Assembly: GCA_951406725.2 (NCBI GenBank)
Contig: OX597822.1
Coordinates: 17,856,001 to 17,920,000, forward strand
Source: Octopus vulgaris
Lineage: Eukaryota
Direction: 5' to 3'
DNA length: 64,000 bases
This document shows, piece after piece, positions 9,980 to 63,393 of the stretch (positions are counted from its first letter, which is position 1; every line of letters begins with the position of its first letter). The notes below the pieces were generated by a model, which was not told the origin of the DNA, made no database searches, and saw only the letters and a list, made by a program, of their open reading frames with translations. Both the position numbers and the translations under genes were made by a program.

Positions 9980-11271
9980 CGAGGGACGTTCAATAAGTAA
10001 TGCCCCTAATCCACTTGCAGTTGTTTGATCTAGCTGAAATTTTGCATGTGCAATTATTTATATCTCTATAGATTAAGTAGCAAATTGCAGCTCTGAACTA
10101 ATTGTGGTTTCTGATTTATAGGTGTTTGAACTGAGTCAAGTGTGAAATGGAGCCTGTTGAGTGTCGAGCAGTGATCCGGTTTTGATATTTGAAAGGACGC
10201 ACACCACGGGAGACTTTTGATGAAATGAAAGTAACTTATGGTGATGATGCCCCATCATGTGACCTTGTAAAACGCTGGCATCGTGAATTCAAACATGGTT
10301 GGAACTCTGTGGAAACAGCTCCCAGATCTGGTCGCCCCCTTCTGCCATTGATGAGGCATCTGTCCGTCAAGTCGAGGCTGCCATTTTGGAAGATCGACGC
10401 ATAACTATTCGCCAAATAGCCCATGAGGTCAAGATTAGTACCGGGTCTGTGGAAACTATCATTCATGACCATTTGCATCTGCAAAAGGTGTCTGCCAGAT
10501 GGATTCCCAGGTTGCTCACACCTTTCAAGAAGCAAGAACGCATTGAGTGCTCGAGGATGAATTTGGAGATGTGCCAAGGAGATGAGTCAAAATTTTTCAA
10601 AAGACTGATTACACAGGATGAAACCTGGGTCCATCACTATGATCCAGAGACCAAAGCCCAGTCAATGCAGTGGAAGCACCGTGACTTACCTCCTCCAAAG
10701 AAGGCAAGGCTGCAGCCTTCCGCTGGCAAGGTCATGCTCACAGTCTTCTGGGACCAGGACTGAGTAGTGATGACAGATTTCCTGGCAAAGGGTACCACAA
10801 TTGCAGGAGCCTATTTGCTTCACTTTTGAGGAAATTAAGAGAAGCTATCAAAATCAAGAGGCGGGGCAAGATCAGCAAAGGCATCCTCCTCCTGCAGGAC
10901 AATGCTCCAGTCCACAACTCGCGTGTCGCCAGATCAGAAGCACAGGCATGCGGCTATGAACCCCCCCCCCCCATTCCCCTACTCTCCTGACCTTGCACCC
11001 TCTGATTTTCACCTCTTCCCAGCCATGAAGTTGTTTTTGAAAGAAAAGCGTTTCCCAGATGATGCAGGCTTGATTTCTGAAGTCACGTCATGGTTGGAGG
11101 ACCAAGCTGGGGTCTTCTACAAAAACGGTCTCCAGAGCTGTATCAAACGATGGGAGAAATGCATAACTCTGGGTGGTTCCTATGTAGAAAAAGACTAATA
11201 ACTGTGCCAAATTTCGTTGCTCTACTGCTATGGGAAGTGGGTCAGGGGCATTACTTATTGAATGCCCCTCA
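9980..11271 (+). mobile_element. Full-length mariner (DD34D) DNA transposon with TIRs and TA target duplication
   Basis: Left TIR cgagggacgttcaataagtaatgcccct and right TIR aggggcattacttattgaatgcccctca. TA lies at 9978-9979 and 11272-11273. Confidence 0.95.
10147..11198 (+). pseudogene. Mariner transposase pseudogene (stops and frameshifts)
   Basis: Motifs MEPVECRAVIRF*, RSGRP, WIPRLLT, ITQDETWVHHYDPE, LLQDNAPVH and PYSPDLAPSDFHLF are split over three frames. Confidence 0.93.
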
Positions 11272-18154: not shown

Positions 18155-19754
18155 TGCCCTCATCTTTTGTTTAATGTTGCATTTTTCTGTGTCCTGTAAC
18201 TTATCATCTTGACAAATAGAGAATGATGAAATAAAGTACTGAGTAGCTGGTCAAATGCCCAAGCATAGCCACAATCCAATGACTAGAAGAAAAAAAAATT
18301 TTAAAAAAACATCCACAGTTCCTTAACCAGGTTCTGTAAAAGTGTGTAGCCTAATGGTTTTCGGATTGTAGGGTCATGAGACGAATGTCTGCATTGAGTG
18401 GTATGTTGTTTTGTCTTTGAGTAAGGTGCTTCGTTTTAACATTGTTCCAATCTTCTCAGCTGAAAATGAGTGCTGGTGCAACCATTCCTCTCACTCTTCA
18501 TCTGTCACATCTTTGATATTCCCTTGGTTCAAGAGCCAAGAGGCCTTTGTGTCTGTTCACAGCTACATTTCTGCCTAAATCAGTGAGTAAAATCACAGCA
18601 CATGCTACCAGACCATACTTGCTTATGAGTGACAACTATAGTTTTATAGACAAACATATGCATGGATATCAATGGAAAGTGCTAAACTTACTAATACATC
18701 CACCGATTCTTTACATAAATAATCTCATTGTTTTAAATGACACTGTAAATATATATTTAAGTCCTAATTCCTAAGACAGCAATTTTCAACATGGAGATGA
18801 AGTTGTGGAAGATACATGGCTAATCAAATGTCAAAGTTCAACACAAACCAACATAAAAGCTTTAAATGTCAAGTAATGTTTTATTATGTACAGGCTGTTT
18901 GGTAGCTTAGTTGTGTATTTTTACCAAGACGACCTTGTCCTTTCTGCATGGTTAAGTGGGGAGGTAGGCTTTAGATGTCCCAAATGCATGTCATGAGTTA
19001 GAATAGGGTCAGCGGTCATGATTGAGGTCAACCGTCCAGGGCTTTTATCATTCATTTGAAGTTGTATTCTGTTTGAAATCCTGTTCATTGATACTCAAAG
19101 AATATAAACAGAAGGAATTCTAGTGAACTTCAGTTTCAATTGGGTGCAGTATTCCATGTTGACAAAGTTGAAATGAAAAGTGATGGAGGAGAAGATTCCT
19201 CACGAGAATCGAAATGAAGGCAGTTTTTGATTTAGAGAAACAGAAACTGGCATAAAAGGGGGAAAAGCAATAATGTCTGCAAGTCAGAGGTGAATGGATT
19301 TTTGGCAATCATCAGAATGGCCTGCTTTTCTGTGCATGTCTTCTACATTTCAGAGATAAGAACTACGTCTCTTCTCTGGTACTTTTGTGTCTAAAAGACA
19401 GGTTTATAAAGATGCACGAATTAAAATATTAACAGGAAAAGAAAACAGGTTCATGTTTGGTTGTGTGGTTAAGAGACTTGCATTGCAACCACATGATTTT
19501 GGGTTTCAATCCCACAGCACAGCATCTTGTCTTTTTAAGGCCCTGGTCAAACAATGCCTTCTGAGAGGATTTGCTCCATAGAAACTACATGAAAGTCTGT
19601 TGTATATGTATATATATGTGTGTGTGAGCATGTGTTTGTTTGTTCCACTACCACTTGACAACTAGTGCTGGTTTGTTTACATCCCTATAACTTGGCAATT
19701 CATAAAAAGCATCTGATAAAATGAGCAATAAACTTTTGATAAAATAAATACTGG

Positions 19755-19887
19755 ACATTACATTATTTATATTGGATGAATATATGTCCTCATCTTGTTT
19801 GCTACCATGGGCATATAGTGTAGTGGTTAAGTGTGCAGGCTACTAACCCCAAGAATGCGAGTTCAATTCCAGGCAGTGCCTTGAATA

Positions 19888-19925
<38 letters not shown>

Positions 19926-20119
19926 CATCATCAAAAAAAATATACCTTAGGAATGAGAACCCAGGGTTGGGTTCAAAATTCTACCAGGTCACCTGATGAA
20001 GGCTGGAGAGTAAACCAGCCGAAACGTTGTGGTAACAACAAACAAGATGAGGACAAATATCCGTCCATTGTAAATAATGTAAATAATGTGCAGAATTCCT
20101 CATCTCTAAAATATAGAAG
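19755..20119 (+). mobile_element. tRNA-headed, hammerhead-containing short retroelement with Penelope-like inverted end and tail (copy 1)
   Basis: 14-bp TSD. A 44-bp inverted arm at 19758-19801 matches 20039-20082 (39/44). tRNA-like head at 19809-19880 (A box tagtgtagtgg, B box gagttcaattcc), then (TAA)n, the hammerhead, and a 37-nt unpaired tail. Confidence 0.85.
19988..20033 (+). ncRNA. Minimal type I hammerhead ribozyme motif
   Basis: Stem I gtcac/gtggt, core CTGATGA (19993-19999), stem II ggctgg/ccagcc, GAAA, loopless palindromic stem III AACGTT, predicted cleavage after GUU. Confidence 0.8.
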
Positions 20120-21212
20120 AAAATAAATACTGGGTTAATTTGTTTGACTTAATCCTTCGAGGTGATGCTCCAGAATGGCAGCAGTCTAATGGCTGAAGCC
20201 TGTAAAAGATAAATGCTTATAGGTTGGCTCCAGCTGGGCTAAATTGTGGTTATGTAACAACAACAGAGGAGAGAGTCTATGCAGTCTACTGAAAATGATA
20301 GCCAAATGGTCCTCAAATGACACCCGACTCTCTTGGAAAACGATTGGTGTATAGTCACTAATGTACTTGGAAATATGTAATTCTTATGAGAAGGACAGGG
20401 TTGCCATGGTTGGATAGAATTTGACTGTAAGTTTAGTCATTCAAGGTTGACCTGGGGTTAAAAAACAACCACCACACAATCAATGAATCCCCTTCCCCAT
20501 TCAACCAGATGTTGAGTTGGTTTGTAACTACAAATTACTTGATTGTCTATCCACATGAAATAATTAGGCTTAATTAGAACTCTTCAGTTTATCAACATTT
20601 TTTCTACTAATAAGCAACGAGGTTTCTATGCACCAATCTCTGTCATAAAAGAAGAAATGATGCTAAATATAGTGAAGCTGTAATTAAACGTTGGTGTTAA
20701 TTACAGCAATCACCACCCCTGTCATCATAGTCTATAAGGGAGATGTGAGAGAATCTTGAGGAATGGTTAAATGATAATTCTTTTTCAAAACAGACACAAA
20801 GCAGCAAATTCTTTTGTTAGTGGGGGATGGGTTAGTCATTTCCATTGGCTTGTATTTTATTTCACTGACCCTGGGAAAGTGACCTGGGTAGGATTTGAAC
20901 TCATAATGCAAAGACCCAGAACAAATACCACATCCTCTTCACTGATACTCTAGCAATACTCCCAGTTTACTATTCTTGATCTTATTTCAGTCATCAGACT
21001 GTGGTCATGCTGGGGCACCACCTTGAAGAATTATAATTGAATGAACAGACCTCACTACATAGTGTTTCCTTTTTTTTAAGTGTAATACTTATTCTGTTGG
21101 TTTCTTTTGCTGAACCTCTAAGCTATGGAAATGTAAACACACCAATGCCAGTTGTCAAGTGGTGGAGGTGGACAAACTCACACACATACACACACACACA
21201 CATGATATGCTT

Positions 21213-21502
21213 TTTACATTATTTACATTTGATGGATATTTGTCCTCATCTTATTTGTTGTTAACACAACATTTCGGATGATATAACCTCCAACCTTCAT
21301 CAGGTGTCTTGGGGTAATTTTGAACCTGGGTTCTCATTCCTAAGGCATTTTTCGATATTATTATTATTATTATTCAGGTCACTGCCTGGAATCGAACTCA
21401 GAATCTTGGGGTTATTAGCCTGCACTCTTAACCTCTACGCTGTGGGCATATATCTGTCAAATGTAAATAATGTACATAATTCCTCATCTCTTAAATATAG
21501 AA
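21213..21502 (-). mobile_element. tRNA-headed, hammerhead-containing short retroelement (copy 2; body inverted, tail direct)
   Basis: The minus strand reads tRNA head (21377-21440), (TAA)n, ttaggaatgagaacccagg, hammerhead, 3' arm. The right end repeats the arm plus the tail aattcctcatctcttaaatatagaa in plus orientation. Confidence 0.82.
21263..21308 (-). ncRNA. Hammerhead ribozyme motif, partly decayed
   Basis: Minus strand: gacac CTGATGA aggttgg aggttatat catcc GAAA tgtt gtgtt. Stem I is gacac/gtgtt. Stem II has mismatches and stem III shows CpG decay. Confidence 0.65.
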
Positions 21503-21643
21503 CTGTAGGCGTTTTTCAGTTTCCAGCTACCAAATCCATTCACAGGGCTTTGGTCAGCCAGAGGTTATACCTGGAGATATTTGCCCAAGATGTCGTACAA
21601 TAACACTGAACCTGTAACCATGGGGTTTGGAAGCAAGATTCTT

Positions 21644-29132: not shown

Positions 29133-31687
29133 ATCATCATCATCATCATCGTTTAACATCCGTTCTCCATGCTAGCATGGGTTGGACGGTTCGACTGGGG
29201 ATCTGGGAAGCCAGAAGGCTGCACCAGGCTCCAGTCTTATCTGGCAATGTTTCTACAGCTGGTTGCCCTTCCTAACGCTAACCACTCCATGAGTGTAGTG
29301 GGTGCTTTTTACGTGCCACCGGCAAGGAAGCCAGTCGAGGCGGCGCTGGCATCGGCCACGATTCGGATAGTGCTTTTTACGTACCACCAGTCCAGGGGTC
29401 CTGGCATCTGCCGGGTGCCAGTCATAGGATTGGTTCAATTTCGATTCCGATTTCATTTGCCCCAACAGGTCTTCACAAGCAAAGGGGGCTGGCACGGGTG
29501 CCTGTCATCGGATAAAGTTCGATATCGACTTCGCTTGCCTCAACAGGTCTTTGTGTGTCCAAGGGAGGGAAGGCATGCATAAGTGGGCTGGACTCACTTG
29601 TCCTGCCTGGTCTTCTCACATACAGCATATTTCCAAAGGTCTCGGTCGCTGGTCATTTCCTCAGTGAGGCCTAAAGTTCGAAGGTCGTGCTTCACCACCT
29701 CGTCCCAGGTTTTCCTGGGTCTACCTCTTCCATGGGTTCCCTCAACTGCCAGGGATTGGCACTTTTTCACACACCTATCTTCATCCATTCTCACCACATG
29801 ACCATACCAGTGCAATCGTCTTTCTTGCACACCACAACTGATGCTTCTTAGGTACAACATTTCTCTCAAGGTACTAACATTCTGTCGAGTATGTACACTG
29901 ACATTACACATCCATCGGAGCATACTGGCTTCATTCCTCGCGAGCTTACGCATGTCCTCAGCAGTCATGGCCCATGTTTCACTGCCATGTAGCATGGCTG
30001 TTTGTACACATGCATCATACAGTCTGCCTTTTACTCTGAGCGAGAGGCCTTTAGTCACCAGCAGAGGTAGGAGCTCCTTAAACTTTGCCCAGGCTATTCT
30101 TACTCTAGCAGTTACACTTTTGACGCACCCACCCCTACTACTGACTTGGTCACCTAGATAACAGAAGCTATCAACTACTTCTAGTTTTTCCCCCTGGAAA
30201 GTGACGGAAGTTGTTTTCTGCAGATTTTCAGAGGTTAATGCTCCCGAGCATCTGCCACATACAAAAACTATCTTCCCAGTTAGCCTTCCTTTGACATTGC
30301 TGCACCTCTTATGTGTCCATAGCTTACACTGGGTACATCTTATAGAGTTTCTACCTACACCTTTCTACAGATCGAGCAGAGCCATCTTCCTGAAGACATT
30401 TGTGGATTGTCTACCATCCTACTTATTAGTGCTTTGGTTTTAGCTAGGTTGACTCTAAGGCCCCTCGATTCTAAACCCTCCGTCCACACCTGGAACTTCT
30501 CCACCAGTTCTGATAGTGACTCAGCAATTAGAGCAAGGTTATCAGCATAGAGGAGCTCCCAGGGGCAACCTGTCTTGAATTCCTCCGTAATTGCCTGGAG
30601 GACTATGATAAATAGGAGGGGGCTGAGAACTGAACACTGGTGGACCCCAACCTCTACTTTGAATTCTTCTGTGTACATGTTGCCAACCCTAGCCTTACTT
30701 ACGGCATCCCTCTACATGGCTTGCACAGCCCTCACCAGCCGTTCATCTATCCCTAGTTTCCTCATTGACCACCAGATAAGGGATCGGGGGACCCTGTCAA
30801 AGGCTTTCTCCATGTCAACGAAAGCCAGGTACAGGGGCTTATCTTTGGCTAGGTATTTCTCCTGCAGCTGCCTTACCAGGAATATAGCATCAGTGGTACT
30901 TTTCCCTGGCATGAACCCAAACTGCATCTCATCTAAACTAACTCTCTTTCTAATTAGTTGGGCTATGACCCTCTCCGTAACCTCCATTACCTGATCCAAC
31001 AGCTTGATACCTCTGTAATTATTTGTATCTAGGGCGTCACCTTTACCTTTGTAGCAGTTGACTAGTATGCTGCTACACCAGTCATTGGGTATGACTCCTT
31101 CGTGTATCACCTGGTTAACTATACGGGTGACTAGGTTATAGCCGACACTGCCAGATATTTTAAGCATCTCTGCAGTAATTCCTGATGGGCCTGGGGCTTT
31201 CCCTGTCTTCATGCTTCTAATTGCTTTAACTACCAAAGATGGCTGGTTTAAGATGGCTGGTCCCCTTGTTGGGTTGACATTCGGCAGACTCTCTTTATCC
31301 CATTCATTTTCTTTATTCAGCAAACTTTCATAGTGGCGTCTCCAAACCTCTCTCTTTGCATCCTCATTTAGCGCAAGTGAACCATCATCCATGCGGACAC
31401 ATTTCTCTCCTGCCAAGTTTAAGGCTGGTCCCCTTGTTGGGTTGACATTCGGCAGACTCTCTTTATCCCATTCATTTTCTTTATTCAGCAAACTTTCATA
31501 GTGGCGTCTCCAAACCTCTCTCTTTGCATCCTCATTTAGCGCAAGTGAACCATCATCCATGCGGACACATTTCTCTCCTGCCACATCACGATTCTCTCTC
31601 ACACACTGTCTTGCAACATGAAATACCTCAAGTCTTTTATCCTCACAGCTCAGAACATTGGCAAATTTTTTCTTATTCGCTTCTCCG
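29133..31687 (-). mobile_element. 5'-truncated RTE-clade LINE (RT domain, 3'UTR, (GAT)n tail) inserted in (TA)n
   Basis: KAPGPSG, NYRGIKLL, QFGFMPGKSTTDAIF, FVDMEKAFDRVP, GVHQCSVLSPLLF, LLYADNL, LHGSETW, RRLHWYGHV, GRGRPRKTW. Contains an internal 168-bp duplication. Confidence 0.95.
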
Positions 31688-31757
31688 ATATATATATATA
31701 TATATATATATATGAATATATATATATATGAATATATGGATATATATATATATATGG

Positions 31758-31786
<29 letters not shown>

Positions 31787-31788
<2 letters not shown>

Positions 31789-32388
31789 GAAGTGAATCTA
31801 TGGCACAACGAAGTACCGATATTTACTGGAAATAGCGAACATAATAATACGACGCTAATGTGTAGCTTCACCGCGTATGTACTATCAAAAATGCGTGAGT
31901 GCAACAAACTTGAAAAAAATTGTCTTACCTCCAGGGAGAACATCTAAAAGATGAAATTCCTAGAAAAGGATAATGTGGGACCGGCGCCGGTTTCAGATTT
32001 TTCAAGATATGCCTGCACACATATACTTGATCTATCTTCATCAGCCAAACATATACCATGACAACATTTCAGATGTTACCACATTAATGCCAATACACTC
32101 GACTGAAACGCCAAAATGCTAACAGAATGAGAACGGTGAAGAAGTTTCAATAAAATTAGTAATGCAATACGAGAGTATTGCTTTTTTGCTTTCCAGTAAA
32201 GAATAGCCCGTGAGGGAAAATTATACATAGAAGTAAATATATGGCACAACGAAGGACCGATATTTACTGGAAATAGCGAATGTAATAATACGACGCTAAT
32301 GTATAGCTTCACCGCGTATGTACTAGCAAAAATGCGTGTGTGCAACAAACTTGAAAAAAATTGTCTTGCCTCCAGGGAGAAAATCTGA
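31787..32388. repeat. Unclassified element: two ~160-bp direct repeats (period 441 bp) around a ~280-bp spacer
   Basis: tagaagt..atggcacaacgaag..cctccagggaga occurs at 31787-31947 and 32228-32388. It is CpG-rich and flanked by (TA)n on both sides. Confidence 0.85.
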
Positions 32389-34616
<2,228 letters not shown>

Positions 34617-35932
34617 CAACACTATGACTGGGTGCTGAAACGGCTGCTCAACCACTCAAATGTGGAAGTGATATATCTCGACTTTGCAAAGGCCTTTGAT
34701 AAAGTCGATCACGGAATGATATGTCACAAACTGCGTGATCTCAACATAGTTGGAAATCTTGGAGAATGGCTTCATGACTTTCTGAAAGATAGAAGTCAGG
34801 TGGTAGTAGCCACTTCCATTAACCCGCAAATAGTCAGGGGTATTCCGCAGGGCCCTGTTTTGGGACCACTACTGTTCATAATGGCCCTCTCAGACATGCC
34901 CTCAGCCACGCAGAGAGCCACGATCACAAGTTATGCAGATGATACAAAAGTTTCACAGGCAATACAGAACCCTGAGGACACTAAACGCCTGCAATGTGAG
35001 CTGGACAAAATATACAAGTGGGCTGAAAAGAATAGCATGCAGTTCAATGCTGAAAAGTTTCAAGCTTTATACTATCAGCATGCAAAACTAAATGCAATAC
35101 CCAATGAATACACTGGACCCGGAGGAATTGCAATCCCAGAGGCACAATCAGTGCGTGACCTGGGTATTTACATGAGTGATGATGCAACCTTTCATGTACA
35201 TGTTGCTAAATTGGCAATGAAATGTAGACGACTGGCCGGATGGATTCTTAGAACCTTTAGAACAAGAGAACAAGAAACCATGATGGTCCTCTGGAAGACA
35301 CTTGTCCTAAGCCACTTTGACTATTTCTCTCAGCTATGGTCACCATCCAGTGTCAAGCTGATCACAGAACTTGAGGCGATCCAACGTAGCTACACGAAGA
35401 ATATAGCCTCTGTGCAGAATGTAAGCTACTGGGAAAGACTCAAGAGATTAAAACTCTATTCCTGGGAGCGTAGGCGAGAAAGATATACCATAATATACAT
35501 CTGGAAGATCCTTGAAGGACTTGTTCCAAACTTTCGCATCGAGAGTTACACAAATGCCAGAACTGGGTGCCACTGCATGTAGCCAAGGACTCCAAATTTG
35601 CCATCAAGATGTAGGACAAGATACTGTGATAGCCTGGGCTTCCGAGGCCCACAGCTCTTCAATATCCTCCCGAAGAACCTAAGAGACCTGCATGGGGTGG
35701 ATGCAGATGTCTTTAAAATGAAACTGGATCTCTTCTTGTCAGGTATCCCAGATGAACCAACTTCACGGCAGGAGGTGCAGATGAGGGCAGCTGCATCGAA
35801 CTCTCTTATGCACCAAATGACATTTGCTAAAAAGCATTCGTGAAGTAAAACCATGTAGCAACACCAAATGGCGGTGCCCCAGCATGGCCACAGCTCGTGA
35901 GCTGAAACTAGAATCAATCAATCAATCAATCA

Positions 35933-40745: not shown

Positions 40746-43006
40746 TCTTCTTCTTGGCATCGTTTCACTGTCAAGGATTAGGAAGGCTGCTGCCCACGAA
40801 ATCTGCACACTTGTTCGTGGCTGATAAGGCCAATGTGGGAACGAGATATCTCATTGCAGTGATGACAGGGGTATGTTTGTTCAGGGTCTGATGATGAACT
40901 TTGCATTATTTTTTCACCTCTGACATTTGTCTTCAAGAGAGGTGCAGTGAGAGATCACAAAGGAGGAAACAGCATTGCTAATGGTATGGCGCCAAGTGAT
41001 GTGGTCAGCTGTTACAGTGGACCACTCATGATAATCAATGTCACAAATGCTAAGGAACTGCTTCAGACAGTCCTTGTAACACTTCCTTATTGGCCTTTAT
41101 TGCGTTGGCCAGTGGTGAGTTCACCGTACATGATGATCTTAGGTAGGAGGTGGTCTTTCATCCTGTCAACGTGCCCTGCCCAATGGAGTCGTGTCTCAAG
41201 TAAAATGGCTTCCAGACTGGTGACCTTTGCTTGCTTGAGGACCTCAGTGTTGGTGATGTAGTTGTTCCAGTAAATGTTGAGGATGGTACAGAGGCAGCAT
41301 TGGTGAAAAAGTTGAAGGGACCTGAGATGATAGCAGTAGGGGAGCCAGGAATGTGAACCATATAGGAGCATCGTGAAAAGGACAGCCCTGTAGACTTTTG
41401 TTCTGATTTTAAGATCTTGTTCCACACACATTTGTGCAGTCTGCCAAATGCTTTGCTTGCCTTTGCAAGTCTGCTGTCAATTTCTTTGTCGATACTCACA
41501 TCTGATGAAATGGTACATCCAACATAAGTGAACTGCTGTACTGACTTCAGTTCTGTTTCAGCAATGGTGATGTGTGGTGGGCTGTACTCTTCCTGAGGAG
41601 TTTGTTGGTGTAGGACTTCAGTCTTTTTCAAGCTTACTTCCAGCCCAAAGAGCTGGGTGGTCTTTGCATAGCAGGATGCAATGTGCTGCAGGGCTCTTTG
41701 TGTGTGTGCGATAAGTGTGGCATCATCTGCAAAGAGAAGGTACTGGATCAGTCTTAGCGTGGGCTTGTAGGCACTGGAGGTTGAGAAGACTGCCATCTAG
41801 ATGGTACATGATGTAGATACCATTTTTGGCATCGAGGTCTACAGTGGCTTGCTTGCGCATCATGCTGAAGAAGATGCTGAAGACAGTTCGTGCCAGGACA
41901 CAGCCTCGCTTCATGCTGTTGTTTATGGGGAATGCCTCAGATATGTCACTATTTAGGTGGACTTGTCCTTGTTGGTCTTCATGAAGCTGGATGATCATGG
42001 TTAGGAATTTTGGGGGACAGCCAAGTCGGTTTCGGATCTGCCACAGACCTTTCCTGCTTACAGTGTTGAACGCTTTTGTCAGATTGGCAAATGTTAAATG
42101 AAGTGGGTTGTTTTGTTCCCAGCACTTTTGTCGGAGAATAAAAACCATATCTGTTGTGCTCCTGTTGGCTCTGAAACCACATTGGCTTTCTGGAAGATAA
42201 TTTTCGGCAATGGACAGAACAAGTCTGTTGAGGAGTAGTCTTGCTAGAACTTTTCCTGCAATAGAAAGCAGTGTAAGCCGCCCCCCACCCACAGTAATTT
42301 GAGCTGTCTGACTTTTCCCCTTTGTTTTTGTACAGTGTAAGGATAACAGCATTGCAGAGATCTTGTGGTAGCTTTCCCTGTTCCCAGCATGCAATGAAGA
42401 GCTCATGGAGTTTAGCATGTAGGACAGGACCTTCATGCTTCCATATCTCTGGTGGTATGCCATCCTGCTGTCTTGGCAATGCTTGGAGGGTGTGTGGAGT
42501 CTTTCCTTTTTGTAATTGTGCATATTCGACCACTTGAAGATGCCTGTTGGCCACTGTTTGCCAGCTGGGTGTGTAGGAGACGAGCTTTCTTTAGGCCACC
42601 ATTTCTAGCCCCCTCTTCATGTGGAGCAAGCAGTGCACTCCCTAGATAAGGCTGCTTGGTCATTTGGGATGCTGCCAAGTGATGTTGTTGACTCCAGGTC
42701 AACACCAGATGAGCACTGGCCCGAACCACCCGCATGCAGGTTGGGAGCTGCGATTTCCAGTGACATCTTCCGCTTGCCCTTTTCACCCCCTTCCCATCGT
42801 TACAGGGCTTGGGGAGTTGGGATCATGGTTGAGGATGTGGACAGGTCTTTCAGCCTGCATGATGGAGTTTAAAGGTGAAGTGCAGTCTGAGCAAAACTGG
42901 CCCATCCTTTACACCTGGGGTTCATCTGCTATGGCCCAGCAAGCTGGGATGATGACAAAGAGGTCCTCAGGACATGGGTTTTCTATCAGAGTGTCCTTCT
43001 CCCAGA
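40746..43006 (-). mobile_element. RTE-clade LINE with 5'UTR, RT and 3' end but no endonuclease
   Basis: 5'UTR motif ggagaaggacactctgat. The ORF start joins DGIPPEIWKH near 42470. Motifs LPESQCGFRANRSTTDM, LLFADDA, FGLEVSLKKTEVL, LHWAGHV, and C-terminal CHHC..HIGLISH. Confidence 0.9.
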
Positions 43007-60600: not shown

Positions 60601-61481
60601 GTACAATACAGTTATTGAGGGTAGTAATAATAATAATAATAATAAGATTAAACAATGACAATTGTAATATTCTGCAATATTAATTAATAATTAACAATAA
60701 ATATACTAATTAAAATAATTATAATAATAATAATAATAATAATAATGATAATAATGATAATAGCAAAAATAATAACTAGCAGTACCCTTGGAAATTCCAT
60801 GGTAATTATGAAATCTTTTAGATGATTATATCAAAAGGTTTGTAGACTTGTTTTCTGGCATGCCAACAGATGGCAGCACATAGTTGCATACACAGTGAGA
60901 GCTAACAGTGACCTTCATGAAGCAGTGGGCTGAGTAACACCATTTACTTCACAAGCTGTGGTGTTTGTGTTTTTGTGATGACTTGTGATGCTGTAGTCCA
61001 CAATTTTGTCATGGACAGAAAGTTGGAACAAAAAGCCAACATTAAACCTGGTAAGTCTTGTGATGTTTTGAAGTGTTTGAGGAAGGACATTCAGTGGAAA
61101 TGACTGAATCTGTGAAATGTGGAGCATTGGATTCTTCATGACAGTGATGCACCCTGTTACCAAAGTCTCCTCACTTGTGAGTTTCTTGTCAAAAACAAAA
61201 TGCTATCACTTCCACACCTGCCATATTCACCCATATTTAGGGCTTGTGGACTTCCATCTCTTTCCCAAAGGGGAAAAAGCAGCTTGAAGATTGCCATTTT
61301 AACACCATTGTCAGGATCCAGAGTGAATTGCAGAAAGTCCTCGACTCACTTCTGGAAAACGACTTCCAGGCTTGATTCCAAAAGTGGCAGGAACACTGAG
61401 ACCAGTCTATTGCTGTGCAAGGTGACTATTTTGAAGGTGATATTGTTAAAACATTGGTAAATAAGTTATTTTTATTAAATA

Positions 61482-63393
61482 CTAGCATTATGACCCGGCG
61501 TTGCCAGGTCATAGTGCTAGTGCATGTATATATGTGTATAAAGTTCAGAGAGCTCTTACCTCTGCTGGTGACAAAAGGCCTCTCGCACAGAGTGAAAGGC
61601 AGACTGTATGATGTGTGTGTACAAACAGCCATGCTACATGGCAGTGAAACATTGGCCGTGACTGCTGAGGATATGCGTAAGCTCGCAAGAAATGAAGCCA
61701 GTATGCTCCGATGGATGTGTAATGCCGGTACTCACACTCGGCAGAGTGTAAGTACCTTGAGAGAAAAGCTGGACCTAAGAAGCATCAGTTGTGGTGTGCA
61801 AGAGAGACGTTTGCGCTGGTATGGTCATGTGGCGAGAATGGATGAAGATAGTTGTGTGAAAAAGTGCCACACCCTAGCGGTTGAGGGAACCTGTGGAAGA
61901 GGCAGACCCAGGAAAACCTGGGACGAGGTGGTGAAGCACGACCTTCGAACTTTAGGTCTCACTGAGGAAATGACTAGAGACCGAGACCTCTGGAAGTGTG
62001 CTGTGCGCGAGAAGACCCGGCAGGACAAGTGAGTCCATAACCCGTGGCCTTCTACATGGGATGGAGCCAGCCTACGTATGCATACCTTCCCTTCTTGGGA
62101 CACAAAACTCTACTTGTGAAGACGTGTTGAGGCAAGTGAGGATCAGAATCGAAATCGATCAATGGAAATTGCAGATGTGTTACCAGTGACGGTGGCATGT
62201 AAGAGAACTTTCCGTTTTGCGACCGTTGCCAGCACCGCCCTGTTTCGTGTCCGTTGCCAGCCTCGCCTGGCCCTCGTGCCGGTGGCACATAAAACGCACC
62301 ATCCGTTCGTGGCCGTTTGCCAGCTCTGTCTGGCACCAGTGCGGGTGGCACGTAAAAAGCACCCACTACACTCACGGAGTGGTTGGCGTTAGGAAGGGCA
62401 TCCAGCCGTAGAAACACTGCCAGATTTGACTGGGCCTGATGAAGCCTTCTGGCTTCACAGACCCCAGTAGAACCGTCCAACCCATGCTAGCATGGAAAAC
62501 GGACGCTAAACGATGATGATGATGTACATCTATATATATACATCTACACATAAAATACAAAATACAACGTTATATCTTGATATCGATAGTGATAACAATA
62601 CTCAAAATATATAACAGACTGGAATTGTAAACCCGTCTCTTGCAATTTCGATCAATTGTATCTTGTCCTCCCTCTTGTATACAAGTGTGGCTACAATCCA
62701 GCCTACCTCTTCTTCTGGGGGGACATTTTAAATTTTTATCCGGGACGTCCTATGTCCCAGATATAAAGGTAAAAATAAAATATTTCCACTTTGCAAGGTT
62801 CAAGTCGAGTACTCCCTTGCACGCTCCGTTGACTCAAACCTTGCTTCTATTGTGGCGAATTTACTCCCTCTGGTTAGATACTTGATATCTTTCATAGTCG
62901 CACCAAGACACTTTTCGATGATGCTTTCCTTCAGTTGTTCAAATCTTTTTTCCTCTACATTGTATATTTTATAGACAATAGTCTTTTCTTTAATTTAATG
63001 GACTATTCCTTGTCTGCGCATTAATTTTATTTTTAATTTATTCCCATTCATGTGAAACCACTTATTCAAGTTCAAGTCATTGATGCAATTTTATACCAAT
63101 TGCTATTTTTACTTTTGTTATGTTACGATTATATTATACTTTAGTTTGATTTTAATTATTACTTACTACATATAATTCAATTGTTATTATTATCTCTAAT
63201 TTTTATTGTTAAAGTGAAAGTATCTGACATAAAATAGAGAAATGTTTTTGTTTCACTTTTAACATGTAATACTGAAATAGGCAAGAAGTTGAACATTTTT
63301 TTTGCCCATGAAACTACATGGACCCTAAGTAAGGCATGTGTAAAATTTGAATGAAATTGGTTGTGTAGTTCTCAAGTTTTAGGGAAACACACG

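Follow-up and report, generated by a model that had tools for sequence, protein, structure and literature searches.

Does a short insertion in the genome of Octopus vulgaris that joins a tRNA-like head to a hammerhead ribozyme represent a mobile element in its own right, or is it a piece of something larger, and what would a tRNA-type promoter be doing there? The insertion is 365 bp long and occupies positions 19755..20119 of the window, by which we mean the whole 64,000-nt stretch of contig OX597822.1 that was analysed. A first-pass annotation had read it as a separate, non-coding and self-cleaving SINE or retrozyme, driven by Pol III and mobilised by a Penelope-like element (PLE). We found that insertion by a PLE stands, and that the separate non-coding SINE or retrozyme does not. 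The insert has the anatomy of the terminal repeat (pLTR) of a PLE, and we are highly confident that it is a solo pLTR and not a separate element.

Anatomy of the insertion

Every feature that had been listed for the insert, namely the target-site duplication (TSD), the inverted arm, the A and B boxes, the (TAA)n tract, the hammerhead and the tail, was found where it had been placed. A repeat search showed that the insert lies within an exact 14-bp TSD, the left copy at 19741..19754 and the identical right copy at 20120..20133 (both on the plus strand); the chance expectation of such a match is about 6e-6 when 625 offsets are allowed for. Next to the left duplication is an inverted arm of the pLTR on the minus strand (19755..19808), truncated at its 5' end and without the tail. 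The clear match in the repeat search covers 44 nt at 89% identity, 19758-19801 against 20039-20082, and a short microhomology with the head may carry the arm as far as the ribozyme cut.

The remaining features are on the plus strand. The tRNA-Arg-like head (19809..19880) has its A box at 19816-19826 and its B box at 19861-19869, and is followed by a (TAA)n tract with approximate limits of 19884..19922, which varies in length and at which copies are often truncated. A minimal type I hammerhead (19988..20033, predicted to cut after 20028) leads into the 3' arm (20034..20082), which stops near the end point of the tailless copies, and then into a one-sided PLE tail of 37 nt (20083..20119) that continues directly into the ORF in ORF-linked copies. 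The earlier reading had overlooked an open frame that starts with an ATG at 19953 and runs to 20117; these are the first 55 codons of the PLE ORF, and they overlap the hammerhead, the arm and the tail.

The window contains a second insertion of the family at 21213-21507, of subfamily B, in which a long inverted tailless arm that reaches the head is paired with a short forward tailed arm. It also holds about 2.3 kb of (TA)n microsatellite with a GC content of 7% (32300-34650) and decayed transposon frames at 10287-10763, 29594-31797, 34600-35582, 41158-42604 and 61400-62032, which by their motifs we take to be pieces of LINE RT in several cases and of a mariner-like transposase in one.

The unit as the terminal repeat of a protein-coding element

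Of 30 endonuclease loci, 29 have the unit immediately downstream of the end of the endonuclease. At locus L005 an endonuclease-type C-terminus abuts the head on its upstream side, and at L298 a stop-free RT-endonuclease frame of 569 codons is followed by the head. On the other side, the unit is attached to the 5' part of the ORF in most of 30 ORF-start loci; the tail leads straight into the ORF, and in ORF-linked copies the frame goes on into RT. Copies of subfamily A, the subfamily of the window insert, continue into ORF-side sequence at L005, L186, L011, L184 and L199, two of them by at least about 100 nt, and partial tandems of the pLTR are present at L441, L453, L454 and L458. The PLE partner that had been predicted, with RT and a GIY-YIG-type endonuclease and sharing both arm and tail, was found.

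Translation of 19953-20117 from its ATG gives 55 codons without a stop, and the peptide matches the N-terminus of an unrelated 847-aa PLE protein, P0003, at 21 of 45 residues (47%; E = 8e-6). The majority sequences of subfamilies A and B differ in the coding part by indels of 6 and 9 nt, and the frame is kept. The description of the unit as non-coding must be withdrawn, because its 3' half, made up of the hammerhead, the arm and the tail, encodes the N-terminus of the ORF.

Family copies align with residues 52-811 of an anole protein, P0091, at 29-55%; we take P0091 to be the Poseidon protein. The closest protein relatives, P0001-P0009, are 53-72% identical. A Pfam search gave a weak RVT_1 match below the cut-off (E 2.6e-6) and no GIY-YIG match, and the endonuclease was identified by alignment together with its known motifs. 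No match was returned by a PDB sequence search, a metagenome scan with P0003 found nothing, and a fully intact copy of the ORF was absent from the best matches. RT is followed by the endonuclease in one ORF, the repeat has the features of a pLTR and the hammerhead lies over the start of the ORF; by this anatomy the element is a member of the endonuclease-bearing (EN+) PLEs, and domain order and similarity point to the Penelope/Poseidon clade.

Every part of the unit, including the head, belongs to the terminal repeat of the coding PLE itself, and this disposes of a separate SINE or retrozyme. A SINE is non-coding and distinct from its partner except at the 3' end, whereas here the whole unit is inside the coding element. 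The tRNA-related 5' head with A and B boxes that is expected of a SINE is present, and the solo unit behaves partly like a SINE, yet it is not a member of that class.

Family size and insertion footprint

We surveyed an assembly of 2.8 Gb in 227 contigs, in which a 17-nt hammerhead word has 9,022 exact matches, a number that includes copies borne by another element. Samples taken at fixed positions, 600 kb in all, held about 6 insertion sites, which extrapolates, with a wide error, to roughly 28,000 sites genome-wide. Two subfamilies were distinguished among 198 long arms, with 48 arms in A and 145 in the commoner B, and copies diverge by about 6-7% from the majority of their own subfamily. 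A fragment of the subfamily A pLTR, with a mutated hammerhead core, has been taken up by another element, which is young and present in many nearly identical copies. That element accounts for 16 of 29 listed loci (L153-L157, L159-L166, L168, L174 and L175; for example G000:C30:17353486-17353648), and the sequence shared by its copies extends at least 400 nt upstream and at least 45 nt downstream.

Arms of the family finish either at the end of the tail or about 22-30 nt short of that point, and 42 of 49 back-to-back pairs are made up of one tailed and one tailless arm. At unselected loci a TSD of 8-14 bp was found at 17 of 38 pairs of neighbouring arms, compared with none of 38 shifted controls. 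An inverted partial pLTR, a tail and a TSD make up the PLE footprint as it is described in the relevant parts of two papers (PMC8557442; PMC3846280), and the inverted arm, tail, TSD and hammerhead are all already known as PLE features. The proposal that PLE machinery made these insertions is upheld by the pairing of tailed with tailless arms, the one-sided tail and the TSD. Inverted arms within a TSD could also be produced by a DNA transposon or MITE with terminal inverted repeats, but arm length in this family ranges from about 40 nt to more than 1 kb, the tail is one-sided and the element encodes RT. We consider such an origin next to impossible; inverted repeats of fixed length, which had been named earlier as a finding that would contradict a PLE, are excluded by the variable arms and the RT-endonuclease partner.

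An abundant repeat of about 400 nt that ends in (AAT)n is found directly upstream of truncated pLTRs (L008/L151, L024/L158, L028, L171, L172 and L080), and from the sequence it looks as if the PLE inserts into the (AAT)n tail of that repeat. Such siting would be consistent with the ATT cutting preference described for the anole element (PMC11167929).

The earlier reading would make the solo pLTRs Pol III source genes in their own right, a genuine SINE lineage that the PLE mobilises in trans. The solos possess both boxes and TSDs, some 78% of head-reaching arms begin at the head (see below), and six columns show different frequencies in solo and in ORF-linked copies of subfamily B (p < 0.01), although about 200 columns were tested and the sampling was not neutral. 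We nevertheless judge this improbable. The same comparison, of 47 solo with 31 ORF-linked B copies, revealed no solo-specific lineage, no fixed diagnostic difference and similar divergence (6.4% and 7.3%, respectively), the unit is coding, and 3' ends track the letters of the ORF, the bases beyond the tail matching its continuation over a variable 0-11 nt. No free-standing head-only SINE was seen among 29 loci selected by their heads; all 29 had the hammerhead-bearing half of the unit near the head, in the same orientation in 28. The protein of the anole PLE, moreover, is described as requiring ORF RNA past the start sites (PMC11167929). The ORF letters after the tail and the lack of fixed differences in the solos favour ORF-bearing templates over self-propagating solo copies.

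The hammerhead

The CUGAUGA core of the hammerhead (19993-19999) is followed by one extra A, and GAAAC-GUU lies at 20021-20028. Stem I (19988-19992/20029-20033) consists of 5 bp, two of them G-U pairs, stem II (20001-20006/20015-20020) of 6 bp, and stem III of the palindrome AACGUU; the RNA fold of 19985-20036 has a z of -2.8. The minimal hammerhead of PLEs, as characterised in the pertinent section of PMC4209133, has a long helix II, a short helix I, an extra base before stem II and a palindromic stem III, and the window copy fits that description, in agreement with the type first assigned to it.

Conservation of the core in the family had also been anticipated, and the core, stems I and II and the palindromic stem III are present in the majority sequences of both subfamilies. 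The perfect stems are in part private to the window copy: in the subfamily A majority, stem I contains an A-G mismatch and stem II ends in a G-U pair. When the stems were checked for covariation, stem II was identical in A and B, and stem I was the one mismatched in A. Among 64 copies the core columns score 0.93 and all columns 0.94, as expected from neutral decay. Scanning with covariance models did not recover the ribozyme, Rfam giving no hammerhead match at the insert or in 17 family loci. Across stem II, P0003 (residues 16-30) has R and W where the window peptide has W and Q, and a hint, no stronger than that, comes from its back-translation, which would permit a compensatory change from U-A to C-G in the stem.

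The ribozyme cut was considered as an insertion end and rejected: an early count had seemed enriched, but after the removal of same-strand joins it was 13 of 52 (p = 0.10). Cleavage of the anole PLE is reported to be unnecessary for insertion in vitro (PMC11167929).

An intact hammerhead core, a palindromic stem III and occasional direct dimers (L194 and L269) are what a retrozyme that replicates through a self-cleaved circular RNA might display, and a PLE origin of animal retrozymes has been proposed (10.64898/2026.07.22.740005). That this family replicates in such a way is very improbable. Its insertions are mostly single or back-to-back pairs and not the tandem arrays by which retrozymes are recognised, its ends are not set by the cut, and the joints listed from one ordinary RNA-seq run included no circle or cut-to-cut junction.

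The tRNA-like head and the 5' boundary

The A box departs from the consensus by one mismatch at a decayed CpG, and the A and B boxes are spaced as in a tRNA. A head of subfamily A shares 49 identities with host tRNA-Arg-TCG (z = 9.0), the best of eight host tRNAs tried, the other seven giving z values of 4.1-7.6. Five differences separate the heads of A and B and three of these are inside the boxes; all three occur at purine-degenerate positions of the consensus, so the consensus is kept. The two boxes reported for the head are confirmed, and a Pol III-type head is plausible from the sequence. Rfam detected no tRNA at the insert or in the 17 family loci, and ARAGORN none anywhere in the window; because these programs recognise neither the tRNA nor the hammerhead, both labels rest on motif and pairwise comparison. 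The A/B-box pattern was not found downstream of 80 control PLE matches, in many of which the sequence available on that side was short, and ARAGORN called no tRNA in the 44 of these loci on which it was run. Elsewhere in the genome, seven tRNA genes, six of them called Cys, lie within 3 kb at L211 (G000:C12:25267077-25270148).

The head marks a 5' boundary. Our sample for this feature was 85 sites, obtained from the first 100 listed hammerhead-word matches on contig C1. Of 45 head-reaching arms, 35 (about 78%) end between -18 and +4 of the first base of the head, and the stop rate per nucleotide is 0.065 at the boundary, 0.012 within the head and 0.0026 upstream, making the boundary rate 5 times that of the head interior and 25 times that of the upstream sequence. 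Genome-wide, exact matches drop from 5,817 for a word within the head to 1,129 for one just upstream and 864 for one at -150, with equal match rates for the head word and the just-upstream word (0.37 and 0.36). Random truncation would yield far fewer copies that begin at the head. Longer copies were seen too: seven of 30 ORF-start loci have an upstream pLTR that reaches the 5' part of the head, and three of these stop at -1, -1 and +4 while four extend up into the preceding ORF. The latter imply that some templates were longer RNAs made by read-through. One of the three that stop, the 2.8-kb copy L463, begins at the head and crosses the entire ORF as far as the following head, so that at least one long template had its end there.

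A promoter is not the only way to make such a step. The head could be a captured relic, with the RNA supplied by Pol II or by read-through, and the boundary could reflect stalling or fold-back of RT at a palindrome, or a Pol II start. A short palindrome does occur at the boundary and many junctions there are perfect hairpins, so that arrest or fold-back could give the same step; palindromes are described at the 5' end of the Adineta pLTR without any tRNA (PMC3846280), and the Penelope pLTR of D. virilis is described as having a LINE-like internal promoter (PMC2377424). On the other hand, the perfect stem of the octopus palindrome is only 5 bp, many copies start between -3 and +1 without a hairpin and are joined to flanking DNA or to an arm that ends elsewhere, and the box changes between subfamilies retain the consensus. 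We regard a relic head as rather unlikely, and favour a Pol III promoter in the head that would set the start of the RNA, which is probable though far from assured.

Terminators and RNA

The sense strand of the 2,811-nt family majority (depth of at least 34) contains no TTTT, compared with 31 AAAA. The significance of this is modest: the probability of zero TTTT is 0.04 by synonymous shuffle and 0.06 and 0.13 under two Markov models, and statistics as weak as these leave room for a relic head. Scarcity relative to other PLEs argues the other way, as the decayed copies of the family have 0.59 TTTT per kb and the 37 controls, which were metagenome PLEs no shorter than 1.5 kb and comparable in T content, have 0.42-6.46, with only one of them lower. 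TTTT-free sequences made up four of 80 controls, all shorter than 1.5 kb.

RNA data came from one raw RNA-seq run that was unstranded, chosen by its species label, probably from another individual and read to about 6%; a search of indexed sequencing runs listed no RNA run containing the family. The raw run showed no Pol III transcript and no sharp starts or ends on the unit. Between 76 and 97% of the reads on the unit continue into unlike sequence, depth falls past the tail from about 2,000 to less than 12, and the signal fits passive transcription of old copies.

That Pol III makes the full-length RNA of the element is possible, although we would put it somewhat below an even chance. The fuller picture, in which a 2.8-kb coding RNA is made by Pol III, the coding strand has been purged of terminators and tens of thousands of solo repeats have been shed, we offer tentatively and with slightly less assurance still. 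Lacking a cap, an RNA made by Pol III would have to be translated by a cap-independent route, and in the accessible text of PMC10886601 Pol III is argued to be too weakly processive for autonomous elements.

A possible life cycle

The copies show the order of the element to be head, (TAA)n, the stretch with ATG, hammerhead, arm and tail, then RT, endonuclease and a further head, often as a partial tandem. Pol III would start a few bases before the head and read into the ORF, whose sense strand would present it with no TTTT terminator. If the octopus element works as the anole one does (PMC11167929, in the part that deals with insertion), the protein would bind just inside the ORF and nick AT-rich DNA on both strands, and reverse transcription would begin internally at two sites, which would account for both kinds of end point, tailless and tailed. 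A cDNA begun in the 5' pLTR would run off the 5' end of the RNA, and as a result most products would be short solo pLTRs that start at the head. The footprint of two cDNAs joined back to back within a TSD of 8-14 bp is seen in the copies; the route by which they come to be joined is presumed. In the window insert, one arm would have stopped after about 50 nt and the other would have reached the head. Solo copies, which do not have the ORF sequence past the tail, probably give rise to no further copies. Cutting by the hammerhead, perhaps as a dimer or assisted by protein, would remove the start codon, and appears not to set the ends of insertions.

Comparison with known systems

Reportedly, Ohshima and Okada described tRNA-derived SINEs of octopus in 1994, with families derived from tRNA-Arg, and these are possibly the same repeat. 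In practical terms, a repeat of great abundance that would be annotated as a tRNA-SINE is here the terminal repeat of a PLE. Autonomous retrotransposons are generally held to use Pol II or host read-through, Pol III being the polymerase of non-coding SINEs and TRIMs, and the same division is stated for LTR elements in the text available of PMC10886601. A coding PLE with a tRNA-type promoter, if true, would break that division, and one would have to ask how an RNA without a cap comes to be translated. Should the solo pLTRs be products of run-off copying of the 5' repeat, the fixed position at which they begin would mark the start of transcription, and this step of PLE replication would become accessible to experiment.

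The head is the unusual part of the element and its remaining anatomy is known from PLEs. The Poseidon element of Anolis carolinensis (PMC11167929) and Pen2/Pen2a of Adineta vaga (PMC3846280), as far as their published descriptions were available, share with it a single ORF with RT before the endonuclease, an ORF that starts in the pLTR at the hammerhead, a one-sided tail of 30-40 nt, an inverted pLTR, a TSD of 8-14 bp, partial tandems and a palindrome at the 5' end of the pLTR. In the anole element the ORF start overlaps the hammerhead and the tail falls between the two internal starts of reverse transcription (PMC11167929). The octopus pLTR differs from both in that it opens with a tRNA-derived head containing A and B boxes; the Adineta paper proposes TATA/Inr motifs and, in its accessible text, mentions neither tRNA nor polymerase III (PMC3846280). 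A literature search whose coverage stopped short of subscription journals, Repbase and paper supplements returned no description of a tRNA-headed PLE.

Other likenesses are found among shorter repeats. Animal non-LTR retrozymes are also short, hammerhead-bearing units related to pLTRs, but are defined in the portion seen of their description by tandem hammerhead units, whereas the octopus family is dispersed, arranged mostly in inverted pairs and linked to an ORF (10.64898/2026.07.22.740005). In Sm-alpha of Schistosoma, too, a type I hammerhead is preceded by a Pol III-type promoter; the published account is of a non-coding repeat whose copies stand in tandem, in contrast to the coding pLTR and inverted pairs of the octopus (PMC6765202). 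The TRIMp3 elements Helenus, Ajax and Cassandra carry a Pol III promoter derived from a small RNA in their terminal repeat, but they are presented as non-autonomous LTR elements whose repeats are not common to an autonomous partner, while the octopus repeat is that of the coding element itself (PMC10886601). From these partial accounts, the nearest precedents for the head are Sm-alpha and TRIMp3, both of them non-autonomous.
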